The notes under the pieces: generated by a model
What the model was told of the DNA's origin: nothing
The model's database searches: none
Seen by the model: the letters and a program-made list of their open reading frames with translations, nothing else
From: Patescibacteria group bacterium
GTDB lineage: Bacteria; Patescibacteriota; Minisyncoccia; UBA6257; 2-01-FULL-56-20
Assembly: GCA_018971305.1 (NCBI GenBank)
Contig: JAGXBC010000001.1
Span: 173,956 to 237,955, forward strand
Reading direction: 5' to 3'
Length of the DNA stretch: 64,000 nucleotides
Position numbers and translations under genes: made by a program
Shown here: positions 22,375-50,413 of the stretch, piece after piece
Numbering within the stretch: the first letter of the stretch is position 1
How the letters are laid out: every line of letters starts with the position of its first letter

Positions 22375-23907
22375 ATGCAGAAACGTTCGGTAATGCTTAT
22401 AATTTTGGACGGTTGGGGAATTGGCAAAGAAGACGATACCAATCCGGTTAACATCGCGAAGCCGGAGACATTTTCCTGGCTACGAAAAAATTTTCCCTTA
22501 ACTAGCCTGCGGGCATCGGGTATTGCAGTAGGTCTCCCCTGGGGAGAAACAGGCAACAGCGAGGTCGGACATTTAACGCTCGGTGCCGGCAAGGTTATAT
22601 ATCAATACTACCCGAAAATCACTATGGCTATTCAAGACGGCAGCTTCTTTGAAAATCCGGTCTTAAAAGATGCCTTCGCCCATGCAAGAAAAAATAGCTC
22701 GGCAGTCAACTTCGCCGGGCTTTTGAGCCGCGGCAACGTCCATGCGGCGCTCGATCATCTGCTAGCTCTTATTGAAATGGGCGAGAAAGAAAACGTGCCG
22801 GTGAAACTTCATCTTTTCGCCGACGGCAAGGACACCCCTCCCAAGAGCGTGCTAAAATTCCTCAAAGAAATTCCCGCGGAAAAAATTGCCACGCTCACCG
22901 GCCGCTATTACGCGATGGACCGCAGCGGAAAATGGCAACTAACTGAACAGGCTTATAACAACCTTGTCGGTAAATCAGGAATAATCGTCGTGAGTCCCGA
23001 CGAAGAGTTGGAAAAGGTTTTCTCCCGCGATCTTTCGGAAGAATATCTACCGCCCTTAAGATTCGGCGCCGGAAGTGAGATAAAAGACGGCGAGTCGCTT
23101 GTCTTCTTCAACTACCGCGAAGACAGCATCCGTCAGACAGCCGAGGCCTTCATTTTAAAAGATTTCAACGAATTCCCGCGTGAAAATTTCCAAGACCTGT
23201 ATATCGCCACATTCACCCATTATGAAGACAAACTTACTGCTCCGGTTGTTTTTGACGGCGACAAAGTAATGGAACCTCTCGGCAAAGTCATAAGTGATGC
23301 CGGGAAAAATCAACTGCGTCTCGCCGAGAGCTATAAATATGCCCACGTAACATTTTTTTTCAACGGCTATAGAGAATCACCTTTCAAAAACGAGTATAGA
23401 ATTTTAATTCCTTCTCTCTCAACCGCCAAACCAGAAGAGCATCCCGAACTCCAAGCCCAGGCCATAACCGACCGCCTGCTGGAAACAATACAAAATCCGG
23501 CATTTGATTTTATTCTTGTCAATTATTCCAACCCGGATACGATGGGACACACTGCCAACTTTGAGGCCGGCGTGGAAGCCGTTCGCACCATAGATAAAGA
23601 ACTCGGCCGCCTTTTAAAATCGGCGATAAACCCGGACATGGCGATTATCATAACTTCCGATCACGGCAATATAGAAGAAATGCTTGATCCAACCACTGGT
23701 TTACCCGAAAGTCAGCACGATCCGAACCCGGTCCCCTTATATCTCATCGCTCCGGAATTCAAGGGGAAAAAATTCTTGAACTGGCAGAATATTGAGAACG
23801 AAACGATGGGCGGACTAGCGGATGTCGCCCCTACCATTTTGGAACTTTTAGGCATCAAACAGCCGCCCGAAATGACGGGTAGAAGCCTATTGGAGGGGTT
23901 AATATAA
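22375..23907 (+). CDS. gpmI: 2,3-bisphosphoglycerate-independent phosphoglycerate mutase
   Basis: N-terminus MLIILDGWG...SEVGHLTLGAG is typical of iPGM. 510 aa. C-terminal metal-binding SDHGN. Confidence 0.9.
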   Translation: MQKRSVMLIILDGWGIGKEDDTNPVNIAKPETFSWLRKNFPLTSLRASGIAVGLPWGETGNSEVGHLTLGAGKVIYQYYPKITMAIQDGSFFENPVLKDAFAHARKNSSAVNFAGLLSRGNVHAALDHLLALIEMGEKENVPVKLHLFADGKDTPPKSVLKFLKEIPAEKIATLTGRYYAMDRSGKWQLTEQAYNNLVGKSGIIVVSPDEELEKVFSRDLSEEYLPPLRFGAGSEIKDGESLVFFNYREDSIRQTAEAFILKDFNEFPRENFQDLYIATFTHYEDKLTAPVVFDGDKVMEPLGKVISDAGKNQLRLAESYKYAHVTFFFNGYRESPFKNEYRILIPSLSTAKPEEHPELQAQAITDRLLETIQNPAFDFILVNYSNPDTMGHTANFEAGVEAVRTIDKELGRLLKSAINPDMAIIITSDHGNIEEMLDPTTGLPESQHDPNPVPLYLIAPEFKGKKFLNWQNIENETMGGLADVAPTILELLGIKQPPEMTGRSLLEGLI

Positions 23908-28556: not shown

Positions 28557-29549
28557 ATGAAACCAATTCTTGTTTCCGGCATCCAGACTTCAGGCCGATT
28601 GCACCTTGGCAATTATTTGGGCGCCTTAAAAAATTTTGTTGACCTGCAAAATTCGGGAAAGTACGATTGTTATTTTTTCTTAGCCGACTTACATTCATTA
28701 ACCGAGGCGTTCAATCCAGAAGATAAACATAAACAAGTCATTGAACTGGCCGCGGATTTTCTGGCTGCCGGCCTGGACCCCAAGAAATCCGTTATCTTCC
28801 AGCAATCGCAGGTCCCGGCGCATACGGAACTCGGATGGATTTTCAATACGATTACGCCATTCGGAGAATTAAACAGGATGACACAGTTTAAAGAGAAATC
28901 CGACGCGCAAAAAGAAAATGCGAATGTCGGGCTTTTAACTTATCCCACTCTGATGGCCGCCGACATTCTTTTATATGACGCCAAATTTGTGCCGGTTGGC
29001 GACGACCAAAAACAGCATTTGGAACTCACGAGAACTATCGCCCGTAAATTCAACGCCAAATTCGGCGAAACTTTCACGGAGCCACAACCACTATTTACAG
29101 CAGCCACTCGGGTGATGAACCTTGGCGAACCGGAGCGAAAAATGTCCAAGTCGCGCTCGCATCCACAAAACGTGATTTTCGTTGACGACTCGCCGGAAGA
29201 AATTTCCGCCAAAATAAAATCCGCCGTAACAGACTCCGGCTCGGAGGTTAAGTACGACATCAAAAACAAACCCGCAATAAGCAACTTGCTTACTATCTAT
29301 TCCGCCCTAAGCGGAGAAGCCATCCCTAAACTGGAGAAATATTTCACAGGGAAAAAGTATTCAGAGTTCAAAGTTAAGCTTGCAGAGCTGATATCCGATT
29401 ACTTCGCGGATTACCGCAAGAAGAAAAAGTTATTACTCGCCAAACCGCAGACACTTATAACAACGCTCAAATCCGGTTCAGCCAAAGCGGCAAAAGTTGC
29501 CGACAAAAAGATACACGAAGTTAAAAAAATAATAGGATTGGCGATTTAA
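28557..29549 (+). CDS. trpS: Tryptophanyl-tRNA synthetase
   Basis: SGIQTSGRLHLGNYLGA (HIGH region) and KMSKS at ERKMSKSRS. 330 aa. Confidence 0.9.
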   Translation: MKPILVSGIQTSGRLHLGNYLGALKNFVDLQNSGKYDCYFFLADLHSLTEAFNPEDKHKQVIELAADFLAAGLDPKKSVIFQQSQVPAHTELGWIFNTITPFGELNRMTQFKEKSDAQKENANVGLLTYPTLMAADILLYDAKFVPVGDDQKQHLELTRTIARKFNAKFGETFTEPQPLFTAATRVMNLGEPERKMSKSRSHPQNVIFVDDSPEEISAKIKSAVTDSGSEVKYDIKNKPAISNLLTIYSALSGEAIPKLEKYFTGKKYSEFKVKLAELISDYFADYRKKKKLLLAKPQTLITTLKSGSAKAAKVADKKIHEVKKIIGLAI

Positions 29550-32500
29550 ATCTTCCTTACAGCCAACCAGGAATCCGCGCCGTTAACCTTCGTTTCCGCC
29601 TCCGCTTCAAATTTTTCCGATTTTTTATATTCTATCGCTTCGGCTCCGACCTCAACTTTCAAAACTTTTTCGTACTTGTAGATTGCGAGACGCACTTCCG
29701 CCGGCAACTGGGCCATCAATATCATTTTATCCTTCGGCTTAAGCCCGGATTTTTGCCGCAGCTCCTGAACGGCCCTTATTATCTCCCGCAATATACCCTC
29801 TTCGCGCAGTTCCGGCGTGACAACGGTATCCAGTTCAATTTCTTCCTTAAATCTGGCACTGAAAACAACTTTCTTAATATTCACCTCTTCTGCTAAAATA
29901 CCAAGCAATTCTTTGGGAATCTTCAGCTTTCCGGTTTTAACCCTGAGTTCACCGAGAGGCTGACGGACTTTTATTCCCGCCTCCGCCCGCTTGGCCAATC
30001 CCAAACTAGCCAAACGCCTCACTTCGGCCATTCCTTCCAGTAATTTAGAATTTTGAGTTTTTAATTTTGGTTTTGTCTCCGGCCAATCTTCCAAATGAAC
30101 TGATTCCTGCGTTCCGTTAAGTTCTCCGTAAAGTAATTCCGAAAAGAATGGTGCGAAGGGAGCTGTTAGTTTCGCCGTTTCACGCAGAACCAAGCCGAGT
30201 GTGGCGCAAGCCGAATCAAAATCCTTGGCGCTCTCCGGTTTTTGCAAGCGCCGGCGCGAACGGCGGATATACCAGCGCGACAGATCGTCAACCAACTTCT
30301 CTATAACAAGCGCGGCTTCTCTTATTTCGTATTTATCCAGGTGCTTTGTGGTATCGGCAACAGTTTCTCCGAGCCGAGACAGAATCCATTTGTCCAGAAC
30401 ATTGGTCGAGGATGGAATTTTATCTCCCGAACTTTTCTCGCTCGCATATGTTTTATAAAATACCAAACTGTTCCAAAGAAGCATGTGCATCCTGCGGTAT
30501 GTTTTCGAAATCTCGTTCTCGTCAAAATTTTTTGTCTCGCCCGGAGGATTCACGGTATAGAAATACCAGCGGACGGCATCAACTCCGTATTTATTGATAA
30601 CCTCCCAGGGGTCAACTATATTCCCTTTGGACTTGGACATTTTCTGCCCGTGCTTATCGTTTATCAGCCCCAAAGAAACAACGTTCTTATATGGCGCCGG
30701 GTATCCCAAAGATGTAGCAACTGCAAGCAGGGTGTAAAACCATCCTCGCGTCTGATCCATTGCCTCCGAAATATAATCTGCCGGATAAGCGCGGCTTTTG
30801 TCTATAGCATCCTCATTCTCAAAAGGATAATGCTGCTGAGCGAAAGGCATTGAGCCGGAATCAAACCAGACGTCAGCTACTTCTTTGACCCGTCCTGTTC
30901 TCGCGCCGCATTGCGGGCAGGCAATATGGATACCATCGGCATATGGCTTGTGCAGGTCTATAACTCCAGTACCATCACGGGGCACTATCTTTAGAGTTAA
31001 CTCTCTTGTTTCAGCTACGCCGATAAAATCCTGGCCACGGCTTATTTTTTCCCGTATAGCGCGTTTTTCATCCCATGCTTCCGCCGCGTGCGTAAGCATC
31101 CAGATCGGATACTCATGGCTCACGAGCAGGATATTCTTGCCGCGGTATTTTTTTTCCAATTCCTGCAAAATTTCCCAAACCCGACTGCGCAAATCGCGCA
31201 GGGACTCGCCTCCTTCCGGCTTGCCCTCAAACTTTGATTCGTATGTGGGAAAAAGCTTATGGTAGCGGCTATCACGGCCCCCCTGAAGCATTGAACCCAA
31301 ATCTACCTCGCGCAGACGTTTGTCGAAAACTACTTTTTTGACGCCCAATGCCTCCGCCGCAATCTCGGCTGTTTCTTTTGTCCGGATTATGTCCGAAGAA
31401 ACGATGACGTCTATTTTTTTTCTGCTGCTTTTTAGTTTCTGCAAAAAATTTTTCGCCGACTTTTCCGCGAGCGAGCGGCCGATAACGGTCAAAGTGTTGT
31501 CTTTAGACCAACCGGAATCAATAAAGTGTTCGGCGTTGCTTTTCGCCTCTCCGTGCCGCATAACCCAATAATTATTCCTGGAACCTCCGGCAAGCTTACT
31601 GAGCTCGTCAATGCCTCCCGCCACTTCGCAGTGATTGCATTTTTTGCATTCCCAGATCGGTAACGGCGTTCCCCAGAACCGTTCACGGGAAAAATTCCAA
31701 TCTTTAACCTCACGCAGCCATTCGCCGAAACGCCCCTGTTTTACGTATTCCGGCGTCCAATTGATTTTATTGTTATTGGCTATAAGCTGCTTCCTTAAAC
31801 CGCTCATGGCTACGAACCAGGAATTTCTTGCGTAATATAGAATTGGCGTGCCGCACCGCCAGCAGTAGGGATAATCATGCTTGTAGGGAAGAACTTTCAG
31901 GAGCGAACCGCGCTGTTTTAAATGTTCAACGATGCCAGCCTCGGTTTCCTTGGACTTCGCGAACAGGCCGGAGAAACCAGAAACGTCCTTAGTGAACTTC
32001 CCAACTTCATCAACCGTGTGATACCTCGGTAAGCCGACTTTAAGTCCCAGCTGATAGTCATCTTCGCCGTACATAACCGCAGTGTGGACTACCCCGGTTC
32101 CCTCTGTCGTATTAACAAAATCGGCGTCGTAAACCTTGTACGAACTTGGCGAACGCAATGCCGGAATTTCAAAAAGCGGCTCGTAGCTCAGGCCGATAAG
32201 TTCGTTCCCCTCAAAAATCTCCCTCAGGTCGGGGGCGGAACCAAAAATAGCGGGATTATTCTTAACGGCTTCCTCAGCTACAATCCAACGCTCTATTTTC
32301 CCGTCAATCATCTTCTTCAGTACGGCGTATTTGATGTTTTTACCAACGGCCAAAGCCACATTTCCTGGGAGCGTCCACGGCGTAGTCGTCCAGGATAAAA
32401 CATACGTATCATCTCCCGCCGAGAAATATCCGCCGATTTTCTGCCCCCTCTTCAATTTGAATTTTATATAAACGGAGTCATCAGTAGTTTCTTTGTAACC

Positions 32501-33076
32501 CAAAGCAAGCTCGTGCGAAGAAAGCGACGTGCCGCAGCGCACGCACCAGGGAACTACCTTATGTCCCTTATAAAGAAGTTTTTTTGTCCAAAAGCGCTTT
32601 ATTATCCACCAAAGAGTTTCTATGTAGGAGCTTTCGTAAGTTATGTAAGGGTCTTTCAGGTCCAGCCAAAAGCCCATCCGTTTTGTGAGGCGCTCCCATT
32701 CGTCTTTGTATTCCCAGACGGACTCGCGGCATTTTTTATTGAAGGCCTCAACGCCGTAGTTTTCAATGTCCTTTTTCGTTTTCAGGCCCAATTGTTTTTC
32801 CACCCCTATCTCCACGGGCAATCCGTGCGTGTCCCAGCCGCCTTTTCTCGGAACCAAATAGCCCCGCATCGCCTTGTAGCGTGGGATTATGTCTTTGAAG
32901 GCACGAGCCAGAATATGGTGCACGCCCGGCCTGCCGTTAGCAGTTGGCGGACCCTCGTAAAATATGAACTTTTTAGCGCCTTTCCGCTTAGCGAGAGTTT
33001 TTGCAAAAATGTCGCTTTCGTTCCAAAATTTCAAAACTTTTTCCTCCTCCTTGGGAAGATTGAATTCTTCGGGCAT
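29546..33076 (-). CDS. ileS: Isoleucyl-tRNA synthetase (type 2) carrying an internal histidine-phosphatase-family domain insertion of about 200 aa (residues about 502-705)
   Basis: The HIGH-region PPTANGRPGVHH, CP1 editing domain and DVWFDSGSMPFAQ / KMSKS region are present. RHGE...RTKET...SHE phosphatase motifs sit between CKKCNHC and IACPQCG. Confidence 0.9.
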   Translation of the reverse strand: MPEEFNLPKEEEKVLKFWNESDIFAKTLAKRKGAKKFIFYEGPPTANGRPGVHHILARAFKDIIPRYKAMRGYLVPRKGGWDTHGLPVEIGVEKQLGLKTKKDIENYGVEAFNKKCRESVWEYKDEWERLTKRMGFWLDLKDPYITYESSYIETLWWIIKRFWTKKLLYKGHKVVPWCVRCGTSLSSHELALGYKETTDDSVYIKFKLKRGQKIGGYFSAGDDTYVLSWTTTPWTLPGNVALAVGKNIKYAVLKKMIDGKIERWIVAEEAVKNNPAIFGSAPDLREIFEGNELIGLSYEPLFEIPALRSPSSYKVYDADFVNTTEGTGVVHTAVMYGEDDYQLGLKVGLPRYHTVDEVGKFTKDVSGFSGLFAKSKETEAGIVEHLKQRGSLLKVLPYKHDYPYCWRCGTPILYYARNSWFVAMSGLRKQLIANNNKINWTPEYVKQGRFGEWLREVKDWNFSRERFWGTPLPIWECKKCNHCEVAGGIDELSKLAGGSRNNYWVMRHGEAKSNAEHFIDSGWSKDNTLTVIGRSLAEKSAKNFLQKLKSSRKKIDVIVSSDIIRTKETAEIAAEALGVKKVVFDKRLREVDLGSMLQGGRDSRYHKLFPTYESKFEGKPEGGESLRDLRSRVWEILQELEKKYRGKNILLVSHEYPIWMLTHAAEAWDEKRAIREKISRGQDFIGVAETRELTLKIVPRDGTGVIDLHKPYADGIHIACPQCGARTGRVKEVADVWFDSGSMPFAQQHYPFENEDAIDKSRAYPADYISEAMDQTRGWFYTLLAVATSLGYPAPYKNVVSLGLINDKHGQKMSKSKGNIVDPWEVINKYGVDAVRWYFYTVNPPGETKNFDENEISKTYRRMHMLLWNSLVFYKTYASEKSSGDKIPSSTNVLDKWILSRLGETVADTTKHLDKYEIREAALVIEKLVDDLSRWYIRRSRRRLQKPESAKDFDSACATLGLVLRETAKLTAPFAPFFSELLYGELNGTQESVHLEDWPETKPKLKTQNSKLLEGMAEVRRLASLGLAKRAEAGIKVRQPLGELRVKTGKLKIPKELLGILAEEVNIKKVVFSARFKEEIELDTVVTPELREEGILREIIRAVQELRQKSGLKPKDKMILMAQLPAEVRLAIYKYEKVLKVEVGAEAIEYKKSEKFEAEAETKVNGADSWLAVRKI

Positions 33077-33103: not shown

Positions 33104-34072
33104 CTATTCAAAAAATCTGCTGCGTATTTTATGGGTATTGCCATGGCTCAAAAGTCCAAGATAAGCGTTAATCGTCGCTGGCGCTGGGTTGGCTATTACC
33201 ATCTTTAACATTCTTCTTCTCGTCGTTGTCCGAAAAACACGGTGATCAGGAAAATTTATCCACCCCAAAAAATCAACTCCGGACGCAATGGTATTTATGA
33301 AAATTTTATTTGGATGAAGCGTAAGTCGCAATTTATTTTCCAAAAATTCTTTTATTTTTGGAACTAGAGATTCCAGCAATCCGCGGTTCTCCGAGAAAAT
33401 AACGAAGTCGTCCGCATAACGTATATAGTGCCTTGTTTTCAGTTTGTGCTTCACAAACTGGTCAAACTCGTTCATATAAACATTTACAAAGAGTTGTGAA
33501 GTGAGGTTGCCGAGCGGTAAACCTTGTCCAGGCGCGCTTGATGAAAAACTCTCGATAACTCTTTCCAGGAGCCGCAGCGTATCAGCGTCTGGGATATATG
33601 AACGTAGAATATCAAGGAGGACGGCGTGGTCGATGTTGGCAAAAAACTTTTGAATGTCACACCTGAGAACCCAGGAGGTACGCGTATTGTTCTTACTAAT
33701 AATGCGGGCGAACGCGCGAAAACGATTCATTGCGGCATGCGTTCCTTTTCCGACTCGGCATGAGAACGAATCAGCTATGAAAGTTTTATCGAAGAACGGA
33801 TAGAGCACCCGGTAGATGGCGTGATGGAGTAAGCGGTCGCGGACGGTTGCCTTGTGGATATTCCGCGGTTTCGGGTCGCAGATGTTGAATGCTTGATACC
33901 CACCGTGTCGGTACGCACCGTTCAAAATATCCGCGCGAAGTGATAGAATGTTATCCATAAGGCGCGATTGGAACTCCTGCACATCACGTTTCCCGCTCTT
34001 GCCGCGCAAAAATTCCCTCCAGGCCTCAAGCAGGTTTTCCACGCTTATGATTTCCTCAAATTTATGAACCAT
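33104..34072 (-). CDS. DGR-type reverse transcriptase
   Basis: The RT domain carries YADD (YIRYADDFVIF). Motif 4 reads LPLGNLTSQLF, the [I/L]GxxxSQ signature of DGR RTs, rather than the QGxxxSP of group II introns. It is about 322 aa from Met 34072, with no maturase or endonuclease domains. The ORF-track extension to 34264 is antisense to avd. Confidence 0.8.
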   Translation of the reverse strand: MVHKFEEIISVENLLEAWREFLRGKSGKRDVQEFQSRLMDNILSLRADILNGAYRHGGYQAFNICDPKPRNIHKATVRDRLLHHAIYRVLYPFFDKTFIADSFSCRVGKGTHAAMNRFRAFARIISKNNTRTSWVLRCDIQKFFANIDHAVLLDILRSYIPDADTLRLLERVIESFSSSAPGQGLPLGNLTSQLFVNVYMNEFDQFVKHKLKTRHYIRYADDFVIFSENRGLLESLVPKIKEFLENKLRLTLHPNKIFINTIASGVDFLGWINFPDHRVFRTTTRRRMLKMVIANPAPATINAYLGLLSHGNTHKIRSRFFE

Positions 34073-34460
34073 CTTAATTTTCACAATAAAAATTTTCAAG
34101 TAACTCCCCCCCCCCCGACACATCACGCTTCCTATCATCCAACACCTGGTAGCGGCGTACAAAACCTGGCATGAATTTCTGCCGCATGTACCCAAGGATG
34201 CGAGATACTCGTTAGGAACTAAGGTCGACGCTTCGTTTATAGAAACGATTGAAGCGGTATTCACCGCAAGCTATCTCAGTAGAGAGAGTAAACTTCCTTA
34301 TCTCGAAAAAGCTGCCGCGAAACTGGACATGGTTAAATTCTTTCTCCAGATAATCTGGGAAGTCAAGGCGCTCGACAATAAAAAATATATTACACTCTCG
34401 GAAAAGCTGGATGAAATAGGCAGAATGCTCGGCGGATGGCTTAGGAAAATGTCTACTTAA
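34064..34460 (+). CDS. avd: Avd-like accessory variability determinant (four-helix-bundle / 23S-rRNA-IVS family). Frame is interrupted at a C11 tract (34106-34116).
   Basis: The downstream frame encodes HITLPIIQHLVAAYKTWHEFLPHVPKDARYSLGTKV...LDEIGRMLGGWLRKMST*, whose C-terminal EIGRMLGGWL matches the Avd EVGRILGSWI motif. The only upstream ATG (34064) is in a different frame. C10 or C13 would fuse them into a 132-aa protein. Confidence 0.6.
34106..34116. repeat. Poly(C)11 homopolymer tract at the 5' end of avd
   Basis: Eleven consecutive C residues counted directly. The tract lies between the ATG at 34064 and the conserved Avd coding frame. Confidence 0.9.
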
Positions 34461-34505
34461 ACCATTCCGCCGGACATCGCCCGTTGTTTTCATTTGCTGC
34501 CAATT

Positions 34506-34624
34506 ACTCGCGACGCGACCGTTGCGATTGAAGTCGTTGTCAAGCCAGTTCCAGTTCAGGTACCAGCGCTCGCCGTTCTGATTGAGGTAGGGAACGTTCC
34601 GGTTGCCGTTCGCGTTCAGCACGA
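34506..34624 (-). repeat. DGR template repeat (TR), about 119 bp
   Basis: Near-identical copy of 34966-35084. It is Asn-codon (AAC) rich on the minus strand (...NANGNRNVPYLNQNGERWYLNWNWLDNDFNRNGRVAS). Confidence 0.8.
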
Positions 34625-34886
34625 ATGTGCGCAAGGCCGTCCGGGCCACCATCCTTCGAGTCACAAACAAAAACCATACTCTCGGGATTGTATCGTATTC
34701 GGAATTTTGAATTCCTTAGCCTCGCACACCAAGTAGCAACAATTATGAAGCGATTAACGAATGCACGCTAGGAGAAAACCCGTCCTCCCCCATTCCGGCA
34801 GACGCCATCGCGGAATTCGATGCGCACAACCTTAGCCGTGCGCATAATATCTACTATCCATAAGGATTATATCAAAAAAATTTAAT

Positions 34887-34908
34887 GGGCCCTAACGAAT
34901 TAGGGCCC
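34887..34908 (-). terminator. Perfect 9-bp GC hairpin (gggccctaa-cgaa-ttagggccc) about 55 nt 3' of the VR. Candidate DGR homing cruciform and/or terminator of the target gene.
   Basis: Exact inverted repeat with a 4-nt loop. On the minus strand it is followed by attaaattttttt. Confidence 0.55.
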
Positions 34909-34959
34909 AAGGGTTGAGGGTTCAAGCGACACAAAGGATCTGAGTCACAAGAACCAATG

Positions 34960-35580
34960 CTACTTGCTCGCGACGCGACCGTTGCGATTGAAGCCGCAGT
35001 CAAGCCAGCTCCGGCCCAGGTACCAGCGCTCGCCGTTCCGACTGAGGTAGGGAACGTTCCGGTAGCCGTTCGCGTACAGCACGACCAAACCCGGAAAATC
35101 GATGTAAACTTTTCCGAGAAGGGACATGAATACGGGGAATTCATCCTGGTGCTCAACAAGCCAAACGGCCTGCTGGTAACCCAGGACAAGATTCCGGCGG
35201 GACACGAGCCTGCGCTCGTATTCGCTGCCAACGATAGACTTCTCGTCAGAACGCAACAATGTGCCAAGACGGAGAATAACTTCATCGGTTGGCGAAGAGT
35301 CGGACTCGATTTTTTCGATCTGAGAGAACGCCCTGCGGAGTTCCTCGAGTGTCGGCTGCTTCAGGGCTGGAATCCGAACGGCGACATCTTCCATCGTCTT
35401 CCAGAATTCCAACATCTTGATCTCGGCGTTGCCGAGATAGATGTCACGGACGCCTGAAAGGTTGGTGCCGGTTGAAAGCCATTTTACAAAATCGGGCGTG
35501 CAACCATTCCGCTCAAGCGCATGATCGAATTCTGCGGCTTGGCGAGCAAACATGACGGGTTGAGACTTGTCATTAGGCAT
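34960..35580 (-). CDS. DGR target (variable) protein, 206 aa, with the C-terminal 40 aa encoded by the VR
   Basis: Strong RBS (AAAGGAGGA) upstream. C-terminus ...LYANGYRNVPYLSRNGERWYLGRSWLDCGFNRNGRVASK* aligns with the TR-encoded peptide. No obvious signal peptide. Confidence 0.75.
   Translation of the reverse strand: MPNDKSQPVMFARQAAEFDHALERNGCTPDFVKWLSTGTNLSGVRDIYLGNAEIKMLEFWKTMEDVAVRIPALKQPTLEELRRAFSQIEKIESDSSPTDEVILRLGTLLRSDEKSIVGSEYERRLVSRRNLVLGYQQAVWLVEHQDEFPVFMSLLGKVYIDFPGLVVLYANGYRNVPYLSRNGERWYLGRSWLDCGFNRNGRVASK
34966..35084 (-). repeat. DGR variable repeat (VR) at the 3' end of the target gene
   Basis: 12 mismatches to the TR over 119 bp. Eleven are at plus-strand T positions, which are adenines on the coding (minus) strand. 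Confidence 0.8.
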
Positions 35581-35774: not shown

Positions 35775-37502
35775 CTATATTCTGTCAATAGCAGTGATTC
35801 CCAATAAATTCAGCCCTTTTTCTATGATTTTCGCCGTTATATTAATAAGCCCAAGAAGCGCGCTCCGCCGACTGGCGGATTCTTCTTTGAGTACCGGCGT
35901 GGTTTCGTATAAACGGTTAGCCAACACGGCCAGCTTATAAAGATAGTTAGCTAGGTTGCTCGTCTGCAGTGTTTCCCCACTTCGCGCCACTTCGTCGGGA
36001 AATTCAAAAATTTTCCGAGCGAGCGCAAGTTCAACATCAGAATTTAATAATGTAAAGTTCTTGCTTTTAGGTTTTAGAGCTTGGGACTTTCTTAAAATAC
36101 TCTTAAGGCGGGCATACGTGTACTGCAAATACGGCCCGCTGTCTCCGGAAAAATCCAGCATTCTTTTCCAGTCAAAAACGATGTCGGTTGTGCGTCCCTC
36201 CCGCAAATCATTGTATTTCAAGGCTCCAACGGCAACCGCCTCAGCGATTTTATCTTTTTCTTTAGCCGATAATTCTTTATTTTTTTCTTCAACAATCTCC
36301 CTCGCCAGCTTGATAGCCTTACCTAAAACCTCTTTAAGTAATATGGTCCTCCCTTCGCGTGTAGCGAGCTTTTGGCCGCTCTCCCCTAGAACCAAACCGT
36401 ATTTAACGTGCTTGAGTTCAACCCCATCGGCCAATCCAAGAATATTAGTTATGGCGAAAAGCTGTTCAAAGTGCAGAGATTGTTCGTTGCCCACAACATA
36501 TAAAATTTTCTCCGGCTTATATTTTTTGACACGGTATTCAATATTCGCAATATCGCGCGTAAGGTAAAGGGATGCTCCATCCGCTTTTTCTATTAACGCC
36601 GGAGGCAGATTGAACTTATCTAGTTTTATAACTATCGCGCCCTCGCTTTTTACGGCGACGCCGTCTTGCACAAGGCGCGAAACAAGCGGCTTCATATCTT
36701 TCTCAAAAAAGCTTTCGCCTTTCCATTCGTCGAACTCTACACCGAGCTCTTTATATGTTCTCTCGAATTCTTTAAGCGATTCTTTTTTAAACCATTGCCA
36801 AAGCTTGCGGTTTTCCTTATCGCCTTCTTCTAATTTTTTGAATTCTTCCTGGCCCTCCAGCTCCAATCCCGGGCGGGACTTCATCTCGTCGTGAAAGCGG
36901 ACGTAGAGCTTCTGCAATTCCTCTATTGGTTTTTCTTCTATCTTTTTCTTATCGCCCCACATTTTATAGGCGGCGATAAGTTTGCCGAACTGCGTCCCCC
37001 AGTCGCCCAAATAATTCCAGCGGATAACTTTATATCCCAGTGATTCAAAAACATTGGCAAGCGCCGCGCCGATTATCGTTGTCCGCAAATGGCCCACGTG
37101 CATCATCTTCGCGATATTCGGCTGAGAATATTCAACGATAACGGTTTTGCTTTTTCCAATACTTCTCTCGCCATATTTTTTTATATTCTTGGTAACCATG
37201 GCCAATTCGTTTTGCAGCGCTTCAGGTGAAAACCAAAAGTTTATAAATCCCGGCGCAGCGGCTTCAACTTTTTGGAAAAACCCAGCCGGCGCAGCGGCAC
37301 TAATTTTCTGCACCAATTCCCTGGCCAGTTCAAGAGGATTTTTCTTTTCCCGCTTAGCCAAAACCATAGCCAAGTTCGTGGAATAATGGCCGAAGTTTTC
37401 TTGTTCCGGAACTGTAACGCTAAAATCTCTGCCATCGGAAAACTCGGATAAAATTTTTATTATCTTATCTTTCATTACCATTAAGAATAATATAAAAAGC
37501 AA
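35775..37502 (-). CDS. argS: Arginyl-tRNA synthetase
   Basis: HVGHLRTTIIG (HIGH) plus the N-terminal Arg_tRNA_synt_N-like domain and the C-terminal DALR anticodon-binding region. The true start may be an internal Met (MKDKII at about 37475). Confidence 0.88.
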   Translation of the reverse strand: MLFILFLMVMKDKIIKILSEFSDGRDFSVTVPEQENFGHYSTNLAMVLAKREKKNPLELARELVQKISAAAPAGFFQKVEAAAPGFINFWFSPEALQNELAMVTKNIKKYGERSIGKSKTVIVEYSQPNIAKMMHVGHLRTTIIGAALANVFESLGYKVIRWNYLGDWGTQFGKLIAAYKMWGDKKKIEEKPIEELQKLYVRFHDEMKSRPGLELEGQEEFKKLEEGDKENRKLWQWFKKESLKEFERTYKELGVEFDEWKGESFFEKDMKPLVSRLVQDGVAVKSEGAIVIKLDKFNLPPALIEKADGASLYLTRDIANIEYRVKKYKPEKILYVVGNEQSLHFEQLFAITNILGLADGVELKHVKYGLVLGESGQKLATREGRTILLKEVLGKAIKLAREIVEEKNKELSAKEKDKIAEAVAVGALKYNDLREGRTTDIVFDWKRMLDFSGDSGPYLQYTYARLKSILRKSQALKPKSKNFTLLNSDVELALARKIFEFPDEVARSGETLQTSNLANYLYKLAVLANRLYETTPVLKEESASRRSALLGLINITAKIIEKGLNLLGITAIDRI

Positions 37503-41720: not shown

Positions 41721-41732
41721 CAATTCTGTGTC

Positions 41733-42049
41733 GGTGGAGATGGGCGGAATTGAACCGCCGTCTAAGGATTGCGCCGCTGAACCATCTACGAACGTATTTC
41801 AGTTAAGAACTGAACAAAAGCGATTCTAATTTTCGCTCCAATGCAGAATCATCCATCGGAACTACGCCTCCTTATATAAGACCGGTATTAACCTAAGAGG
41901 TCCAGATTAGCCGATCCTCCGGTGTTACGCGTAAGCGAATGCCGGAGCCGCAACTTTTGAGTTGGCAGTTATTGTTTTTTCGCGAGTTTAACGAGTCCGC
42001 CCTCGGTCCGCAAATTCAGAACGCATCCTTATCGAAGCCGATCATCCCC
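41733..42049 (-). ncRNA. ssrA: tmRNA (ssrA), about 317 nt. Predicted tag peptide is (A)ANSKVAAPAFAYA.
   Basis: The 5' end GGGGATGATCGGCTTCGATAAGGATGCG pairs with the 3' CATCTCC-ACC, including G3:U70. The tRNA-like T-arm is GGCGGTTCAATTCCGCC. Resume codon GCC follows ACAATAACT, and the tag ORF ends at TAA. Confidence 0.8.
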
Positions 42050-44877: not shown

Positions 44878-45342
44878 TCAGGCACGACGGCCATATCTCG
44901 CGGAAGGACCACGCATTCTGGCTCGCAAAAAGTCGTAGGCCTGCCTTAAGACCTTTTGGCTGTCTTTATACTTACCTAAAATTCTTTGGGCGTCCCTGAA
45001 TAAAAACCAGCCGTATCCTTGATGCTCAAAAGAAATTCTTACGTCTTTTTTGGAAGATTCCGCCAGATAAAAAATTACCACTTTAAATATGCTCTGCCCG
45101 GATTTTTTGAAGTAAAACCTCTCATAAGCCTGGAATCCCGGTATTAGGCGCAGGTCGTGCCCGGAAAGTCCGGCCTCCTCCCTCGTCTCGCGAAGCGCGG
45201 CCGCTAAACTCTCTTCTTCCGATTCAATATGCCCCTTGGGAAAATTCCAATAACTGCCACCGTGATATAGAATCAAAAACTTGGGACCTTCCTTGGTCCT
45301 CCTATAGGCGATTATTCCTGCCGATATCTCTTGTTTTGTCAT
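44878..45342 (-). CDS. NUDIX hydrolase
   Basis: Nudix box GHIESEEESLAAALRETREEAGL. Confidence 0.85.
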   Translation of the reverse strand: MTKQEISAGIIAYRRTKEGPKFLILYHGGSYWNFPKGHIESEEESLAAALRETREEAGLSGHDLRLIPGFQAYERFYFKKSGQSIFKVVIFYLAESSKKDVRISFEHQGYGWFLFRDAQRILGKYKDSQKVLRQAYDFLRARMRGPSARYGRRA

Positions 45343-47069
45343 TTTAGAAATTCTAACATTTTTGCCACGGGCCAGGCATTAATAATGTCTTTTCTCTCGG
45401 CCCAACCGCGACGCGCCTGCGCAATGCCATATTCCAGATAAGGAAAGTGCGCGGGCGAATGAGCATCGGAGTCGATGGACATTTTCACCCCCATCTCCAC
45501 GCACTTTCTAATATGGTCGTCTTTCAAATCTAAGCGGTCGGGGTAGGCATCTATTTCCATTATTGTTCCGGTTTTTTTAGCCGCCTTTATTAATTCATCC
45601 ATATCAACTTCATAAGCTTCGCGGCGATTAATAATGCGTCCTGTTGGATGGAAAATAATATCAACATTTTTATTTTCCATCGCCCGCTTAATACGCGCGG
45701 TCTGCTCAGCGCGCGGCAAGTTAAAATAGGAGTGGACCGAGGCACCAACGACATCCAGCTTTGCCAAAATATTGTCCGGCAGATCAAGTGATCCGTCCTT
45801 TAAAATATCGCACTCGCTACCCTTCAGAATTTTGATTTTTCCGGCAAACTTCTTGTTTAGACGATCTATCTCGGCCATCTGCTTTAGAATCCTTTTTTCG
45901 TCCAGACCGTGCGTCATAGCCAGGCGCTTTGTGTGATCGGTTATAACTATATATTCAAGTCCATTTTTTCTAGCCGCAAGCGCCATATTCTCTATAGAAG
46001 CAGAACCGTCCGTCCATTCCGTCTGCACCTGCAAATCGCCACGGAGATCGTTATAGCCGACAAGCACCGGCAGGGCGTGTTTCCTAGCCAGCTCTATCTC
46101 GCCAGTGTTCTCGCGCATCTCCGGCTCAATATAATCCATACCGAGAGCTTTATATAGCTCTTCTTCGTTTTTGCCGGCAACCTGTTTTTTCCTTTTAAAC
46201 AATCCGTATTCGTTCAATTTATAACCCTTAGAGATGGCGATTTTGCGCAGAGCTACGTTATGGTCTTTGGAGCCGGTAAAATAATTAAGCGCCGCGCCAT
46301 ACGAGTTCGCCCTAACTACACGCAGATCAATATCCATTCCTGATTTTATTTTAATGGAAGATTTGGTCGCTCCATGCGCATGAACTTGTGCCACCTCCGG
46401 CATCTCAACAAAATAATCCATTATCGGCGCCGGTTTTTTTGAAACTACGAGAATGTCCGCATCTCCTATTGTTTCCTTGCTACGCCGAGTTGATCCGGCG
46501 ACTATTGTTTTTTCCACGCCCGGTAAAGAACGCAGACGCTCTTCAATCGTTTCTATAGTGGGCATAACAGAACCCAACACGAACCGCCCGCCCGATTTCT
46601 TTACGAATTCAATTCCCTTTAGGATATTCTCTTCGCTTTTCTTTCCAAAACCATCAAGGCGAGAAATTTTTCCCGCACGCGCCGCTTTTTCCAAATCAGC
46701 AATACCCTTAATTCCTAACTTTTGATAAAGCTTTTTTATGGACTTCGGCCCAAGACCCTCTATCCCCCCGAACTCTTCTAGCCTAACGGGTGTTTTCTTT
46801 TTTATATCTTCGTAATATTTACAACGCCCGGTTTTGATTATCTCCTCTATTTTTTCTGCGATAGACACGCCAACTCCAGGAATTTCTTCAAGCGCCTTTA
46901 GTCCGCCTTTTTCATAAATATCCCTCGCTTCTTCTTCCAGCCCGCCTATAATCTCCGCGACTTTTTCGTAAGCGCGCGGCTTAAAGGGCACGTCCTGCAT
47001 TTCCAGGTAAATAGATATCTCCGAGAGTATTTCCGCGATAATTCTATTAGTAATCTGATCTCTGGACAT
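45339..47069 (-). CDS. polX: DNA polymerase X family protein with C-terminal PHP phosphoesterase domain
   Basis: N-terminal Pol-beta-like HhH region (GIGVSIAEKIEEI), a GDADILVV nucleotidyltransferase core, and a C-terminal PHP domain (HTHTKRLAMTHGL). Start is chosen at MSRDQ to avoid overlap with the upstream gene. The longer ORF runs to 47102. Confidence 0.8.
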   Translation of the reverse strand: MSRDQITNRIIAEILSEISIYLEMQDVPFKPRAYEKVAEIIGGLEEEARDIYEKGGLKALEEIPGVGVSIAEKIEEIIKTGRCKYYEDIKKKTPVRLEEFGGIEGLGPKSIKKLYQKLGIKGIADLEKAARAGKISRLDGFGKKSEENILKGIEFVKKSGGRFVLGSVMPTIETIEERLRSLPGVEKTIVAGSTRRSKETIGDADILVVSKKPAPIMDYFVEMPEVAQVHAHGATKSSIKIKSGMDIDLRVVRANSYGAALNYFTGSKDHNVALRKIAISKGYKLNEYGLFKRKKQVAGKNEEELYKALGMDYIEPEMRENTGEIELARKHALPVLVGYNDLRGDLQVQTEWTDGSASIENMALAARKNGLEYIVITDHTKRLAMTHGLDEKRILKQMAEIDRLNKKFAGKIKILKGSECDILKDGSLDLPDNILAKLDVVGASVHSYFNLPRAEQTARIKRAMENKNVDIIFHPTGRIINRREAYEVDMDELIKAAKKTGTIMEIDAYPDRLDLKDDHIRKCVEMGVKMSIDSDAHSPAHFPYLEYGIAQARRGWAERKDIINAWPVAKMLEFLK

Positions 47070-47076
47070 TGTCGGT

Positions 47077-47757
47077 TTAACGATTTTTGTCCAAAGGCAC
47101 ACTTAGTTTCGCGGAAGGACCATCCTTAGGGATAACAGTGGCTAGGGGGGTTGTTTGTTTCGGCAAAATAAGGTCTGGGGCCATTATCAGCAAAACCGCC
47201 GATAACGCAGAAAATATTCCGGCGAAGATGAAAACCGCCGGGAACCCCCAGGAGTTAGCGATAATTCCCCCGACAAATCCGCTTACACCGGCCGAAACTC
47301 CGGCCGCCGTACTATCCAATGCCCAATCAAAAGAAATCCTGTCTTTATCCAAGTGCCGCGAGAAAATAGCCGGCCAGGAGGCGGCGTAGAGAGCGAAACC
47401 AATAGCGTGAATAATCTGAACCAAATATAATTGCCAGATCTCTTTTACGAGAGCGAAAGAAATTGCCGAAAAGGCGGCAAGCAATAAGCCAAATATCAGA
47501 GCGTAGAAATCATCTTTCTCTCCCGGTGTCTTATCTAAATAATTGGCGAGTGGAAGTTGTAGCAACGATTTGAGAAGCCAATAAATAGCGGCCGAGGCCC
47601 CAACGGTTATCAGAGTGGCTCCGGCTATATTCTGAATTATAAATATGGAAAATACGGGTTCGATCAAACCCCAGCCGGCCAAAAGGGTTAAATCAGACAA
47701 AATAAAATACTTTACGAGGCGGCCAACTTTTATGTCCAGGCTTATTCTTATTTTCAT
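47077..47757 (-). CDS. Hypothetical 6-TM membrane protein (MFS-half-like)
   Basis: 226 aa with about 6 hydrophobic helices. Weak resemblance to an MFS half. Confidence 0.4.
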   Translation of the reverse strand: MKIRISLDIKVGRLVKYFILSDLTLLAGWGLIEPVFSIFIIQNIAGATLITVGASAAIYWLLKSLLQLPLANYLDKTPGEKDDFYALIFGLLLAAFSAISFALVKEIWQLYLVQIIHAIGFALYAASWPAIFSRHLDKDRISFDWALDSTAAGVSAGVSGFVGGIIANSWGFPAVFIFAGIFSALSAVLLIMAPDLILPKQTTPLATVIPKDGPSAKLSVPLDKNR

Positions 47758-47860: not shown

Positions 47861-50413
47861 TCATGCCTTTGTTTCGCCGATCTCATTAAATTGTATTTCT
47901 TCTCCGACAGAAGAAACCTTTATATGGCTGCCGCGATTTACTGTTTTTTTCAATATCTTCTGCGCGAGCGGGGCACGAAGCTTTTCATCTATCACTCGGC
48001 GCAGAGGCCTCGCACCGAATGCAGGATCATAACCAAGCTTAACAAGCTCACTAATCAGAGAGTCGTCGAATTCCATCTTTATACCCTGCTCGGCTACCAT
48101 GGCCGCGACATCCTGCAGATTAATTGAGACTATCTTAGCCAGATCTACCGGAAGAAGATTTTTAAAAATAACGATGCGCGAGAATCTATTGATAAGTTCC
48201 GGCTTAAAAACATCGGTTAATCTTTTCTTTAGATATTCCGATATTTCCGACATGGACTGTCCTTTATTCAGAGCATCGTTGATGATATCCGAATGGGCGT
48301 TGGACGTGGCGATAATAACCGTATTTTGAAAATCAACCACTCTTCCCAAGTTGTCGGTCAGGCGGCCATCATCCAAAACCTGCAGAAAAAGGTTGAGTAT
48401 GTCCGGAAATGCTTTTTCAAACTCATCCAAAAGCACCAAGCTGTATGGTTTCTGTAAAATCGCATCTGTGAGCGTACCGTTCACGCTGCCATCCGGTGAA
48501 CCGATAAATCTGTAGAAACTTTGCTTGTCTTGGTATTCCGTCATATCAAAACGCACCATCGCTTTTTCCGAGCCGAACTGAACGCGCGCCAGAATCTTAG
48601 CGAGCTCGGTTTTGCCGACGCCGGTAGGGCCAACAAAGAGAAAACTGGAAATCGGGCCGCCGGCGCGAGAAAGGCCGCTTCTATATTCTCGTAAAGATTC
48701 GGATACGGCGCGCACGGCTTCTTCCTGATCGATTAGACGTTCGTGAATAATATTCTCCAGGTTCAAAAGTTGTTTAGCTTCGTCACCGGACGCCTCGTGG
48801 ATAGGAATATTCACCTTAGCCTCTGCCACCCTGATAACCTGCTCCGGGCCAAGAACTTTTTCTCCCCTTCTTTTTACGTCTACTACAGCGCTTTTCAATA
48901 GTTCCTCGGCGCTTGCCGGTAAAAATTTATTGCGAAAATATTTTTTAGCGAGAATCACGGATTTCTTTACGGCGCCGAAACTAATGGTAACGCCAAACTG
49001 CTTCTCCAACAGCAACCCATCGTAACTCAAGATTTTTTCGGCTTCGTCTTCCTTTATTTCATTAACTCTGATAATTTCAAATGCGCCGGCGAAATCGCTT
49101 CTCGGCTCAATGAACTGCTTAAACTCTTTGGGATATGTAGCACCAATTATAGGAAAAGAATTATTCATAATTATCGGCATCAGCTCATCGGCGGCGGAAA
49201 GGTATGCCGTACCCGAGGTCCGCACTAAATTATGAATGTCCGCGATATAGATTATAATATTGCCGGCAGTTATGATCTCCTCAATAATTTTCTTCAGCCG
49301 CTGATTCAACTCTTCCGGCGGCGCTCCCGCAACCAAGCTACCAAGCTCCAATCCCACAAGCCTCTTGTCGAAAAGTGCCTGTGGCACTTCGTCTTTGGAT
49401 AATTTATAAGCCAAGTGGGCAACCAATGTTTCCTTGCCTATACCGGATTCACCTATCAGCAAGGCATTAGGGTTTATCGGCCGAGCCAATGTATCTATTA
49501 ATCGTTCCAATTCTTCTTTATGACCGATAAGAAACCCCGCGCGTCCCTGCCTGGCTAAATCGGTGAAATCGGTGGAATATCTATCTAGAGTAGGAGTCGG
49601 TCTTGAAGTCCAATCCCTGTTCATGATTCTGTGCCTTGACCGAACCGGTCCCGACACAAAACCGGCTACGCTGCCGGGCAAACGTCCGAACGAAGAACTC
49701 TTACTTAAGGAGCTGAAAATCAATGCTCTTTCCAGGTCCCCGGCATCAATCCCGAAGATTCCGAATATCCTCTTCAAAGATTCGTTTTCTATTAGGGGGA
49801 GGGAAGAAAATAGGTCGCTTAATTCTATGAATGCGTGTCCCGACTCCAACGCCCGATTCAGAGCGCTAACCGTTAAAAGTTCCACGTTCCCGAGGAGAGA
49901 TTCTTGTGTCGGACCCACTCCTTCGCCCCTGCCGCTGGCGGATAAAAATTCTTCGATTTTCTGCCTGAATTCATCAAAGGGAATATCAAGGCGCCTCAAG
50001 CCGCTTTCTATTTCAGAAAAATTAAGAAGCTGGCGCGCCAGTTCCAAAAAGAAATCGTGCCGAGTGATTAGGCTACTATCGAAAGATTTTTCTATTATCC
50101 CGAATGCCTTCGGCCTAAGAAATAAGGCCAGATTAACCCTTCCCTTTCTGGGGAATTCTGTAAGCGGCTTATCCGCCTGCCTCAGGTGCATTACTCTGTC
50201 TAGTAAGAATAAAATCAGAAATATACCGAAGAAACGCATCCAGGTTAAATCAGACAAAATAAATGTCGCGGTTGCGGCGGCAAGAACCAGGTATCCAATG
50301 TAGCTCAAAATCCTCACCAAAAATCTGCCTGGCCAGCTCATCCGCAGGCGCGGGTCGTTGAAGGAAAGTTTTAATTCCTGAGCTCTTTTTGTTTTAGAAA
50401 TTTCTTGCTGCAT
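47861..50413 (-). CDS. Membrane-anchored Clp/Hsp100-family double-AAA+ ATPase with degenerate D1 nucleotide-binding motifs
   Basis: The N-terminal hydrophobic segment is FLVRILSYIGYLVLAAATATF...FFGIFLILFLL. D1 Walker A reads GESGIGKE and Walker B reads YIADIH (no DE). D2 is intact with GPTGVGKT and LLDEFEKA. The ClpB-like C-terminal domain is present. Confidence 0.7.
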   Translation of the reverse strand: MQQEISKTKRAQELKLSFNDPRLRMSWPGRFLVRILSYIGYLVLAAATATFILSDLTWMRFFGIFLILFLLDRVMHLRQADKPLTEFPRKGRVNLALFLRPKAFGIIEKSFDSSLITRHDFFLELARQLLNFSEIESGLRRLDIPFDEFRQKIEEFLSASGRGEGVGPTQESLLGNVELLTVSALNRALESGHAFIELSDLFSSLPLIENESLKRIFGIFGIDAGDLERALIFSSLSKSSSFGRLPGSVAGFVSGPVRSRHRIMNRDWTSRPTPTLDRYSTDFTDLARQGRAGFLIGHKEELERLIDTLARPINPNALLIGESGIGKETLVAHLAYKLSKDEVPQALFDKRLVGLELGSLVAGAPPEELNQRLKKIIEEIITAGNIIIYIADIHNLVRTSGTAYLSAADELMPIIMNNSFPIIGATYPKEFKQFIEPRSDFAGAFEIIRVNEIKEDEAEKILSYDGLLLEKQFGVTISFGAVKKSVILAKKYFRNKFLPASAEELLKSAVVDVKRRGEKVLGPEQVIRVAEAKVNIPIHEASGDEAKQLLNLENIIHERLIDQEEAVRAVSESLREYRSGLSRAGGPISSFLFVGPTGVGKTELAKILARVQFGSEKAMVRFDMTEYQDKQSFYRFIGSPDGSVNGTLTDAILQKPYSLVLLDEFEKAFPDILNLFLQVLDDGRLTDNLGRVVDFQNTVIIATSNAHSDIINDALNKGQSMSEISEYLKKRLTDVFKPELINRFSRIVIFKNLLPVDLAKIVSINLQDVAAMVAEQGIKMEFDDSLISELVKLGYDPAFGARPLRRVIDEKLRAPLAQKILKKTVNRGSHIKVSSVGEEIQFNEIGETKA

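Follow-up and report, generated by a model that had tools for sequence, protein, structure and literature searches.

The closest solved relatives of the enzyme considered here are the isoleucyl-tRNA synthetases (IleRS) of Thermus thermophilus (1ILE, 790 bits) and Priestia megaterium (IleRS2, 8C8U-W, 783 bits), both of which possess a CP1 editing domain, a zinc-binding CP3 subdomain and type-2 C-terminal domains. The IleRS in question is encoded by the ileS gene (29546..33076, minus strand) in a 64,000-nucleotide stretch of contig JAGXBC010000001.1 from a Patescibacteria group bacterium (assembly GCA_018971305.1, positions 173,956 to 237,955), referred to below as the window. It resembles the two solved enzymes in each of these features and has the GXHH variant of a class I signature motif in common with IleRS2 (PMC10485003), but it carries 211 residues at a site where 1ILE and 8C8U-W have about nine. 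The inserted residues bear the hallmarks of a histidine phosphatase nested within the synthetase, and none of the solved IleRS structures contains an enzymatic domain in CP3.

IleRS, ValRS and LeuRS already harbour one hydrolytic domain within their Rossmann fold, CP1, which acts on a product of the synthetic site. Unlike the insert described here, CP1 is universal and ancient, has an unrelated fold and hydrolyses aminoacyl esters rather than phosphate esters. A curated precedent for an IleRS with a second enzymatic domain is the ileS_w_GNAT family (NF040702), to which the window protein does not belong (332.7 bits versus a cut-off of 1999) and whose accessory enzyme, a GNAT, is a different one from another family. 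The closest folds to the insert are PspA (4IJ5), GpgP (6S2Q), PhoE (1H2E), CobC (6E4B) and a riboflavin-pathway HFP (9MMH), with 18-26% identity, and all five are stand-alone enzymes, whereas the window phosphatase is nested in a synthetase. Histidine phosphatase domains are also known from two-enzyme fusions such as MutT1 (Nudix plus His_Phos; 3FJY, 9CXX) and the RNase H/acid phosphatase (NF005567), which have other partners and are joined end to end rather than nested; the window protein does not reach the cut-offs for two-enzyme His_Phos fusions. The His_Phos domain of MutT1 acts on nucleotides, and a MutT1-type Nudix-His_Phos fusion is among the structural matches of the insert.

Full-text literature searches, together with recent IleRS papers and the AARS Online paper, yielded no description of a histidine phosphatase within an aminoacyl-tRNA synthetase. 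The original prediction, made from the sequence of the window, had called the architecture undescribed as far as known; this holds for the searched literature, but the sequences themselves are public and carry automatic PF00133 and PF00300 labels. The database names of insert-bearing proteins are only 'class I tRNA ligase family protein' or 'isoleucyl-tRNA synthetase'. What is new here is the recognition of the architecture and of its breadth, the argS-phosphatase-ileS operon link, the parallel in ValRS and the mosaic history of the gene.

The nested phosphatase and its host synthetase

The ileS gene is a single uninterrupted open reading frame (ORF) of 1176 aa. It had been described as continuous with about 200 extra residues, and these correspond to the 211-residue segment 495-705. 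The ORF scores 855.5 bits against the NCBIfam model TIGR00392 (cut-off 621.4) and matches the Pfam families PF00133 (tRNA-synt_1), PF08264 (Anticodon_1) and PF19302 (DUF5915, the type-2 C-terminal family, residues 1048-1175). An AlphaFold2 model of the full-length protein has a predicted local distance difference test score (pLDDT) of 92 and a predicted template modelling score of 0.87, with the insert at about 97, and Foldseek searches with the whole model return IleRS only (template modelling scores to the target of 0.79-0.89). The class I HIGH motif is present as the swapped variant GVHH (aa 51-54, 32915..32926, minus strand), and this G/A-X-H-H signature occurs in 118 of the 120 closest homologues. 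The KMSKS motif (aa 812-816, 30629..30643, minus strand) is likewise kept in 118/120, and the threonine-rich editing motif WTTTPWT as well as GTGVVH are invariant among homologues. The host motifs are thus conserved throughout (GXHH or HYGH, KMSKS, the editing motifs and the zinc cysteines), and motif conservation suggests that the host is a functional, editing-competent type-2 enzyme that aminoacylates tRNA(Ile). No second ileS is found within the window. The GXHH motif of IleRS2 has been linked to mupirocin hyper-resistance (PMC10485003); the window protein is not one of the acquired mupirocin-resistance enzymes MupA and MupB, scoring 768 and 766 bits against an NCBIfam exception-model cut-off of 1900.

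Alignment of the window protein to 1ILE proceeds in two blocks (query 4-494 with Thermus 7-478, and query 706-1035 with Thermus 488-821), and residues 495-705 (30962..31594, minus strand) replace the nine-residue linker of the Thermus enzyme that runs from 478 to 488. The insert had originally been assigned to 30962-31573, equivalent to residues 502-705; the C-terminal border of that span stands, and the alignment break extends the N-terminal one to residue 495. The segment consists of the complete phosphatase and a short C-terminal linker, LKIVPRDGTGV, with junctions that read LAGG/SRNNYW and DGTGV/IDLHKP. Free-standing relatives of the phosphatase end in E[IL]R[EV]LN, which aligns with AETRELT of the insert, and GC content is continuous across the insert borders.

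The insert separates the two halves of the CP3 zinc knuckle, with the first CXXC (CKKC, C477 and C480; 31637..31648, minus strand) upstream and the second (CPQC, C720 and C723; 30908..30919, minus strand) downstream, and both Cys of each pair are invariant. The IleRS segments IDLHKPYADG (aa 706-715) and DVWFDSG (aa 735-741) follow the insert. This arrangement agrees with the earlier placement of the insert between zinc-knuckle segments in lieu of a short linker. The accompanying description of the site as inside the catalytic core is not borne out, as the segment sits in CP3, a zinc-binding subdomain that is inserted peripherally into the Rossmann fold and is distinct from the catalytic core proper. 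CP3 of the Thermus enzyme binds zinc, and its topology varies among three solved IleRS (PMC7191050). The insert begins 26 residues after the CP2-CP3 linker DWNFSRERFWG (aa 459-469, 31670..31702, minus strand), whose counterpart in yeast IleRS, ARDWNVSRNRYWG, lines the pocket that is occupied by reveromycin A and the tRNA 3' end (PMC7955072).

A search of the insert against PF00300, which the original prediction had proposed as a check, returns a His_Phos_1 match at aa 504-675 (31052..31567, minus strand; profile positions 2-168 of 194) with a score of 102 bits (cut-off 21.7) and E=4.4e-29. The four phosphatase hallmarks that had been read from the sequence are all in place with their catalytic residues conserved. 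The RHG motif R507-H508-G509 (31550..31558, minus strand) lies within VMRHGEAKSN (505-514), with H508 as the predicted phospho-accepting nucleophile, and the second phosphate-binding Arg, R565 (31382..31384, minus strand), lies in RTKET (565-569) and aligns with the Arg of 'KRT' in PspA. E590 of RLRE (587-590; E590 at 31307..31309, minus strand) aligns with the general-acid Glu of PspA 'RIIEID', and H654 of LLVSHE (650-655; H654 at 31115..31117, minus strand), the second catalytic His, aligns with PspA 'VSH'. In a set of 63 full-length sequences, comprising 62 GTDB species representatives and the window protein, the inserts are 38-61% identical to that of the window and R507, H508, R565, E590, R632 and H654 are invariant in 63/63. 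Among 120 database homologues, the same Arg and His residues show no variation, and at least 90% retain E590. Identity to the window protein is 0.52 for the insert versus 0.56 for CP1 and 0.57 for the anticodon-binding domain, which amounts to roughly equal conservation. Modelled alone, the insert reaches a pLDDT of 95.9 and has the branch-1 alpha/beta fold of PF00300. Residues 495-705 are almost certainly a complete branch-1 histidine phosphatase of the small PhoE/PspA/GpgP/CobC type, and the residues retained in its active site make it very probable that the nested domain is catalytically active.

The insert does not reach the NCBIfam equivalog cut-offs for PspA (49 bits versus 350), CobC (51 versus 162.9) or GpmB (56.3 versus 261), and the insert and its free-standing relatives all remain under the cut-offs of the named subfamilies PspA, CobC, GpmB and SixA. 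It is an uncharacterised histidine phosphatase subfamily. Assignment to the glycolytic phosphoglycerate mutase dPGM is likewise rejected (dPGM_arch, 61.7 versus 225; PRK01295, 35.8 versus 316). As the window encodes a cofactor-independent phosphoglycerate mutase (iPGM, with iPGM_N and Metalloenzyme domains; 22375..23907, plus strand), the IleRS insert is not needed as a glycolytic mutase.

The exact window protein is present under three NCBI accessions, named 'class I tRNA ligase family protein [Patescibacteria group bacterium]', and the 120 best full-length homologues (56-66% identical, 1155-1271 aa) all combine PF00133 with PF00300. A scan of GTDB with one genome per species yields 407 stretches encoding relatives of the insert, of which the best 80 loci (L001-L080) were examined; for insert position and architecture, loci were extended as ORFs anchored by tblastn. 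These 80 loci come from Patescibacteria only, with titles that name Lipton-, Jorgensen-, Wolfe-, Campbell-, Sungii- and Tagabacteria, Paceibacterota and Minisyncoccia. In 80/80 the phosphatase lies in frame between the IleRS halves, as far as the contigs reach, and its position is fixed at 27 residues past WGxPxP and 9 ahead of DLH[RK]. The survey of orthologues that the original prediction had called for therefore finds the same insertion in every one of the best GTDB loci and best homologues, and the nested phosphatase is a lineage-wide trait of Paceibacteria/Parcubacteria. Frameshifts split the insert-bearing ileS in three of the best 80 loci (L024, L033 and L063) and also in L085, which probably reflects errors of sequencing or assembly and not pseudogene formation. 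The gene caller lists the phosphatase of L085 as a separate 191-aa protein, so that some 'free-standing' database entries are artefacts of this kind.

Searched against 1.84 billion cluster representatives, the insert gives 5173 matches at E<=0.001, including 499 at E<=1e-10. Of the best 150 of the 5173 representatives, about 90 are IleRS that carry the insert in CP3, and short proteins, which certainly include fragments, account for about 55. The long proteins among these 150 are class Ia synthetases only, namely IleRS and one ValRS (P0196).

Free-standing relatives, further copies and mosaic history

Metagenomes also encode free-standing proteins of about 190 aa that align with the insert along its full length at 32-44% identity. 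The contigs of eleven of these relatives were inspected, a small sample in which eight are informative; P0154 and P0158, which lie on contigs that are too short, and P0012, a frameshift-broken embedded copy, were left out. A type-2 ileS without the insert adjoins the free-standing phosphatase in six of the eight informative contigs. The phosphatase is directly 5' of ileS on the same strand, with a gap of 4-17 nt, in L084, L086, L088 and L096, is separated from it by one gene in L089, and is adjacent to it in convergent orientation in L087. The argS gene is in turn found directly 5' of the phosphatase in L084, L086, L087 and L088, with one or two small genes between them in L089 and L096. In the window, argS (35775..37502, minus strand; Pfam tRNA-synt_1d, DALR_1 and Arg_tRNA_synt_N) is the next housekeeping gene upstream of ileS, and it is directly upstream of insert-bearing ileS in 47 related loci. 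The argS-phosphatase-ileS order is likely to be the older state, with the phosphatase having moved about 1.5 kb into ileS in Paceibacteria. The nested position represents a true insertion, since read-through between the neighbouring genes would yield an N-terminal fusion.

The argS genes upstream of ileS in L001-L080 form two classes, which are 51-70% and 25-37% identical to the window ArgRS, a split that suggests frequent xenologous replacement of synthetase genes in the group. In L096 (3915-5004) the free-standing phosphatase is separated from argS by a Nudix hydrolase gene and a 205-aa gene without annotation, and a CYTH gene and two Nudix genes lie near the free-standing relative P0014 in L081 (8207-9727). 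The presence of Nudix and CYTH neighbours hints at a nucleotide-related role.

A few IleRS, including P0221, P0226 and P0244 among others, contain extra phosphatase copies for a total of two to three, and all of the copies keep their catalytic motifs. The additional sites are between WFDSG and DQTRGWF, between DLH[RK] and WFDSG, and about 70 residues past KMSKS at the start of the anticodon-binding domain. The 1419-aa IleRS P0226 is encoded next to purA, DAHP synthase, SufBD and SLH protein genes, a context that appears atypical of Patescibacteria or the candidate phyla radiation. L093 is also listed among the loci with extra or ValRS phosphatase copies. The ValRS P0196 has at least four copies, with the RHG, second Arg and Glu present in 4/4 and the second His in the three complete copies; the fourth ends at the contig end, before the position of the second His. 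With P0196 as query, 71 of the best 120 ValRS matches (P0296-P0414) contain one to four phosphatase copies, and several of the phosphatase-bearing ValRS are named Gracilibacteria or Peregrinibacteria. The CP3-equivalent site between WGHxIP and DTWFSS accommodates 72 of the 88 ValRS phosphatase domains. In a rough neighbour-joining (NJ) tree, the ValRS copies and one IleRS copy (P0226) form a clade of their own, apart from the other IleRS and free-standing domains, which points to a separate recruitment at the homologous site.

Analyses of p-distances and NJ trees indicate that the module is carried by two types of IleRS body. The G type, to which the window protein belongs (GXHH or AXHH), is closest to Priestia/Thermus IleRS2, with 750-790 bits versus 560-590 for yeast IleRS, and the H type, with the canonical HYGH and eukaryote-like motifs, has yeast IleRS as its best match (722 bits). 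Body identity is 45% between types (maximum 51%) and 57-59% within types, and G-type bodies are 47.5% identical to Thermus IleRS versus 44.6% to H-type bodies. For the insert, identity between types is 0.44 versus 0.45 and 0.48 within them, with a between-type maximum of 71% (L023/L021). Sliding-window comparison reveals a block of high identity at about 481-720, from the first CXXC to just beyond the second, and another at about 1020-1110. The two types are reciprocally monophyletic in NJ trees of the body and intermixed in those of the module and the C-terminal domain. Taken together, the CP3-phosphatase module and the C-terminal domain track the organism, not the body.

Both body types occupy the same argS-ileS-trpS-rnj neighbourhood in related Paceibacteria, and several H-type loci have an RNase J that matches the one of the window as closely as does that of the closest G-type loci. 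The insert-less ileS genes beside a free-standing phosphatase in L086 and L088 encode HYGH and are nearer to the H type. These patterns suggest that the H type was the original host and that a GXHH-type body was transferred in, which may have kept or recaptured the resident CP3-phosphatase module by recombination.

Function and alternative explanations

The explanation that best fits the observations as a whole, with a probability of roughly 0.55, is that the insert is an active nested phosphatase of CP3 that works with IleRS. The phosphatase, placed between the CXXC halves of CP3, would be translated as one polypeptide with the synthetase and retained in the mature enzyme as an extra lobe. 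H508 would take the phosphoryl group, with R507, R565 and H654 holding the phosphate and E590 protonating the leaving group. The phosphatase would be a partner of the synthetase and not a metabolic enzyme without ties to it and, anchored 26 residues past the CP2-CP3 linker, could dephosphorylate a nucleotide or the 3'-terminal adenosine of tRNA(Ile), either of which might block charging if it kept its phosphate. The ties between phosphatase and synthetase take four forms, an adjacent gene, a nested domain, extra copies and a parallel site in the paralogous ValRS, and the module is kept when the rest of ileS is exchanged. A functional coupling of the phosphatase to IleRS and ValRS is probable. 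The more specific proposal that its substrate is a nucleotide or a tRNA end is tentative. Relevant to it are the MutT1-type fusion among the structural matches and the finding that tRNAs pyrophosphorylated at the 3' end are not chargeable, with toxSAS toxins being selective for particular tRNAs (10.1101/2021.04.30.441581; PMC11559606). Net charge, compared between embedded and free-standing domains as a proxy for RNA binding, shows large scatter.

A dedicated role in repair or immunity of class Ia synthetases can also be considered. The nested domain might conceivably strip phosphate or pyrophosphate from the 3' end of tRNA(Ile) or tRNA(Val), or from a phosphorylated nucleotide inhibitor, directly at the charging site, but such an activity is improbable. 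Groups of this kind are known products of toxSAS toxins and could also result from nuclease damage. The arms-race signature of the locus, with its GXHH swap, the repeated replacement of the body with retention of the module and the expansion of copies, would then belong to the same conflict. If true, such an activity would constitute a second, phosphate-directed proofreading beside CP1 editing.

Several observations weigh against a phosphatase dedicated to the synthetase. As CP3 topology varies among solved IleRS (PMC7191050), the site may simply be permissive, and retention of the module through replacement of the body would also be expected of a phosphatase whose essential role lies elsewhere. 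The insert is nearest in fold to metabolite phosphatases, which speaks against a nucleotide or tRNA end as the substrate, and the free-standing relatives P0014 and P0018 are located away from ileS and have no link to a synthetase. The rather unlikely alternative that draws on these points is an ordinary small-molecule phosphatase, for phosphoserine or a sugar or cofactor phosphate, that was once co-transcribed with ileS and later came to occupy a permissive loop. The fusion would then reflect co-expression and gene economy in a tiny genome without a link to aminoacylation, and the similarity in fold and sequence to PspA, GpgP, PhoE, CobC and the riboflavin HFP, all small-molecule phosphatases, is in keeping with it, as are the variable CP3 and the location of P0014 and P0018. 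It accords poorly with the repeated recruitment to class Ia synthetases, which involves several IleRS sites, up to four tandem copies and a ValRS clade, and with the finding that the long proteins among the best 150 representatives are all class Ia synthetases. Moreover, read-through of an upstream gene would make an N-terminal and not a nested fusion. A non-catalytic or sensor module, which would bind a phosphorylated metabolite or carry a phosphoryl group on its own H508 and serve as an allosteric switch or an extra tRNA-binding surface that tunes IleRS activity to metabolic state, is a quite improbable alternative. The Glu, His and Arg residues are fully conserved at 38-61% identity, beyond the usual need of ligand binding, and multiple tandem copies suit an activity dosage better than a switch. 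HipA/HipT-type kinases target the KMSKS region of class I enzymes such as GltX and TrpS, and the insert could in principle be a built-in protein phosphatase that undoes the phosphorylation of the synthetase by kinase toxins of this type, for which the likelihood is low.

The occupation of conserved sites in essential genes, the decoupling of module phylogeny from host-gene phylogeny and the identical site in two diverged IleRS lineages would all be compatible with a selfish element, akin to an intein or a homing element, that passes between alleles of ileS and valS and is spliced out or tolerated. Such an element is nonetheless very improbable. Intein, Hint and endonuclease families have no Pfam match in the IleRS ORF at E<=0.01, and the junctions are without the Cys/Ser/Thr and His-Asn splice residues, in line with the earlier remark that the insert lacks intein splicing motifs. 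Matches to the PADLOC defence-system models are at chance level only (E=0.004-0.007). In addition, the phosphatase catalytic residues are strictly conserved, the moving unit includes the native CP3 zinc knuckle, and a stand-alone cellular gene exists beside ileS. The original prediction had raised the possibility of a chimera, in which assembly or binning joined ileS to a phosphatase gene. The window stems from a metagenome-assembled genome, and no support for a chimera was found. Its probability is negligible, and an assembly chimera is excluded by the recurrence of the in-frame architecture across independent assemblies, with the same junctions in the best loci of at least 80 species from many studies and in 120/120 best homologues, three accessions of the exact protein and no compositional break.

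Other features of the window and implications

A diversity-generating retroelement is located directly upstream of ileS (33104-35580, minus strand) and includes a reverse transcriptase ORF (PF00078; 33104..34264, minus strand). Its 127-nt template repeat (34498-34624) and variable repeat (34958-35084) are 89% identical, with A in the template copy at 10 of 14 mismatched positions. A 206-aa ORF (34960..35580, minus strand) that has no Pfam match contains the variable repeat as its 3' end. The window further encodes a tmRNA with the tag ANSKVAAPAFAYA (41732-42049, minus strand), as well as two AAA+ ATPases, one of ClpB type and another of Clp type, and a PHP domain-containing family X DNA polymerase (8495-11143, 47861-50413 and 45339-47102, respectively, minus strand).

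Few enzymes have been studied as thoroughly as the aminoacyl-tRNA synthetases, whose accessory domains usually signal real biology, such as editing, tRNA binding or signalling. The phosphatase represents a second, apparently active catalytic centre of very different chemistry in the IleRS of hundreds of uncultured species and in ValRS elsewhere. Three independent kinds of genomic evidence tie it to the synthetase, namely operon adjacency, nested fusion and repeated or parallel recruitment. The locus is a natural case of a neighbouring gene that turned into a nested insert, and of a module that was kept while the essential gene around it was exchanged. A functional link would reveal that some phosphorylated molecule is relevant to the charging of tRNA with branched-chain amino acids. 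Candidates for this molecule are a tRNA end altered by damage or by a toxin, a nucleotide by-product and an inhibitor, and its removal would be a need that has gone unrecognised in model organisms.

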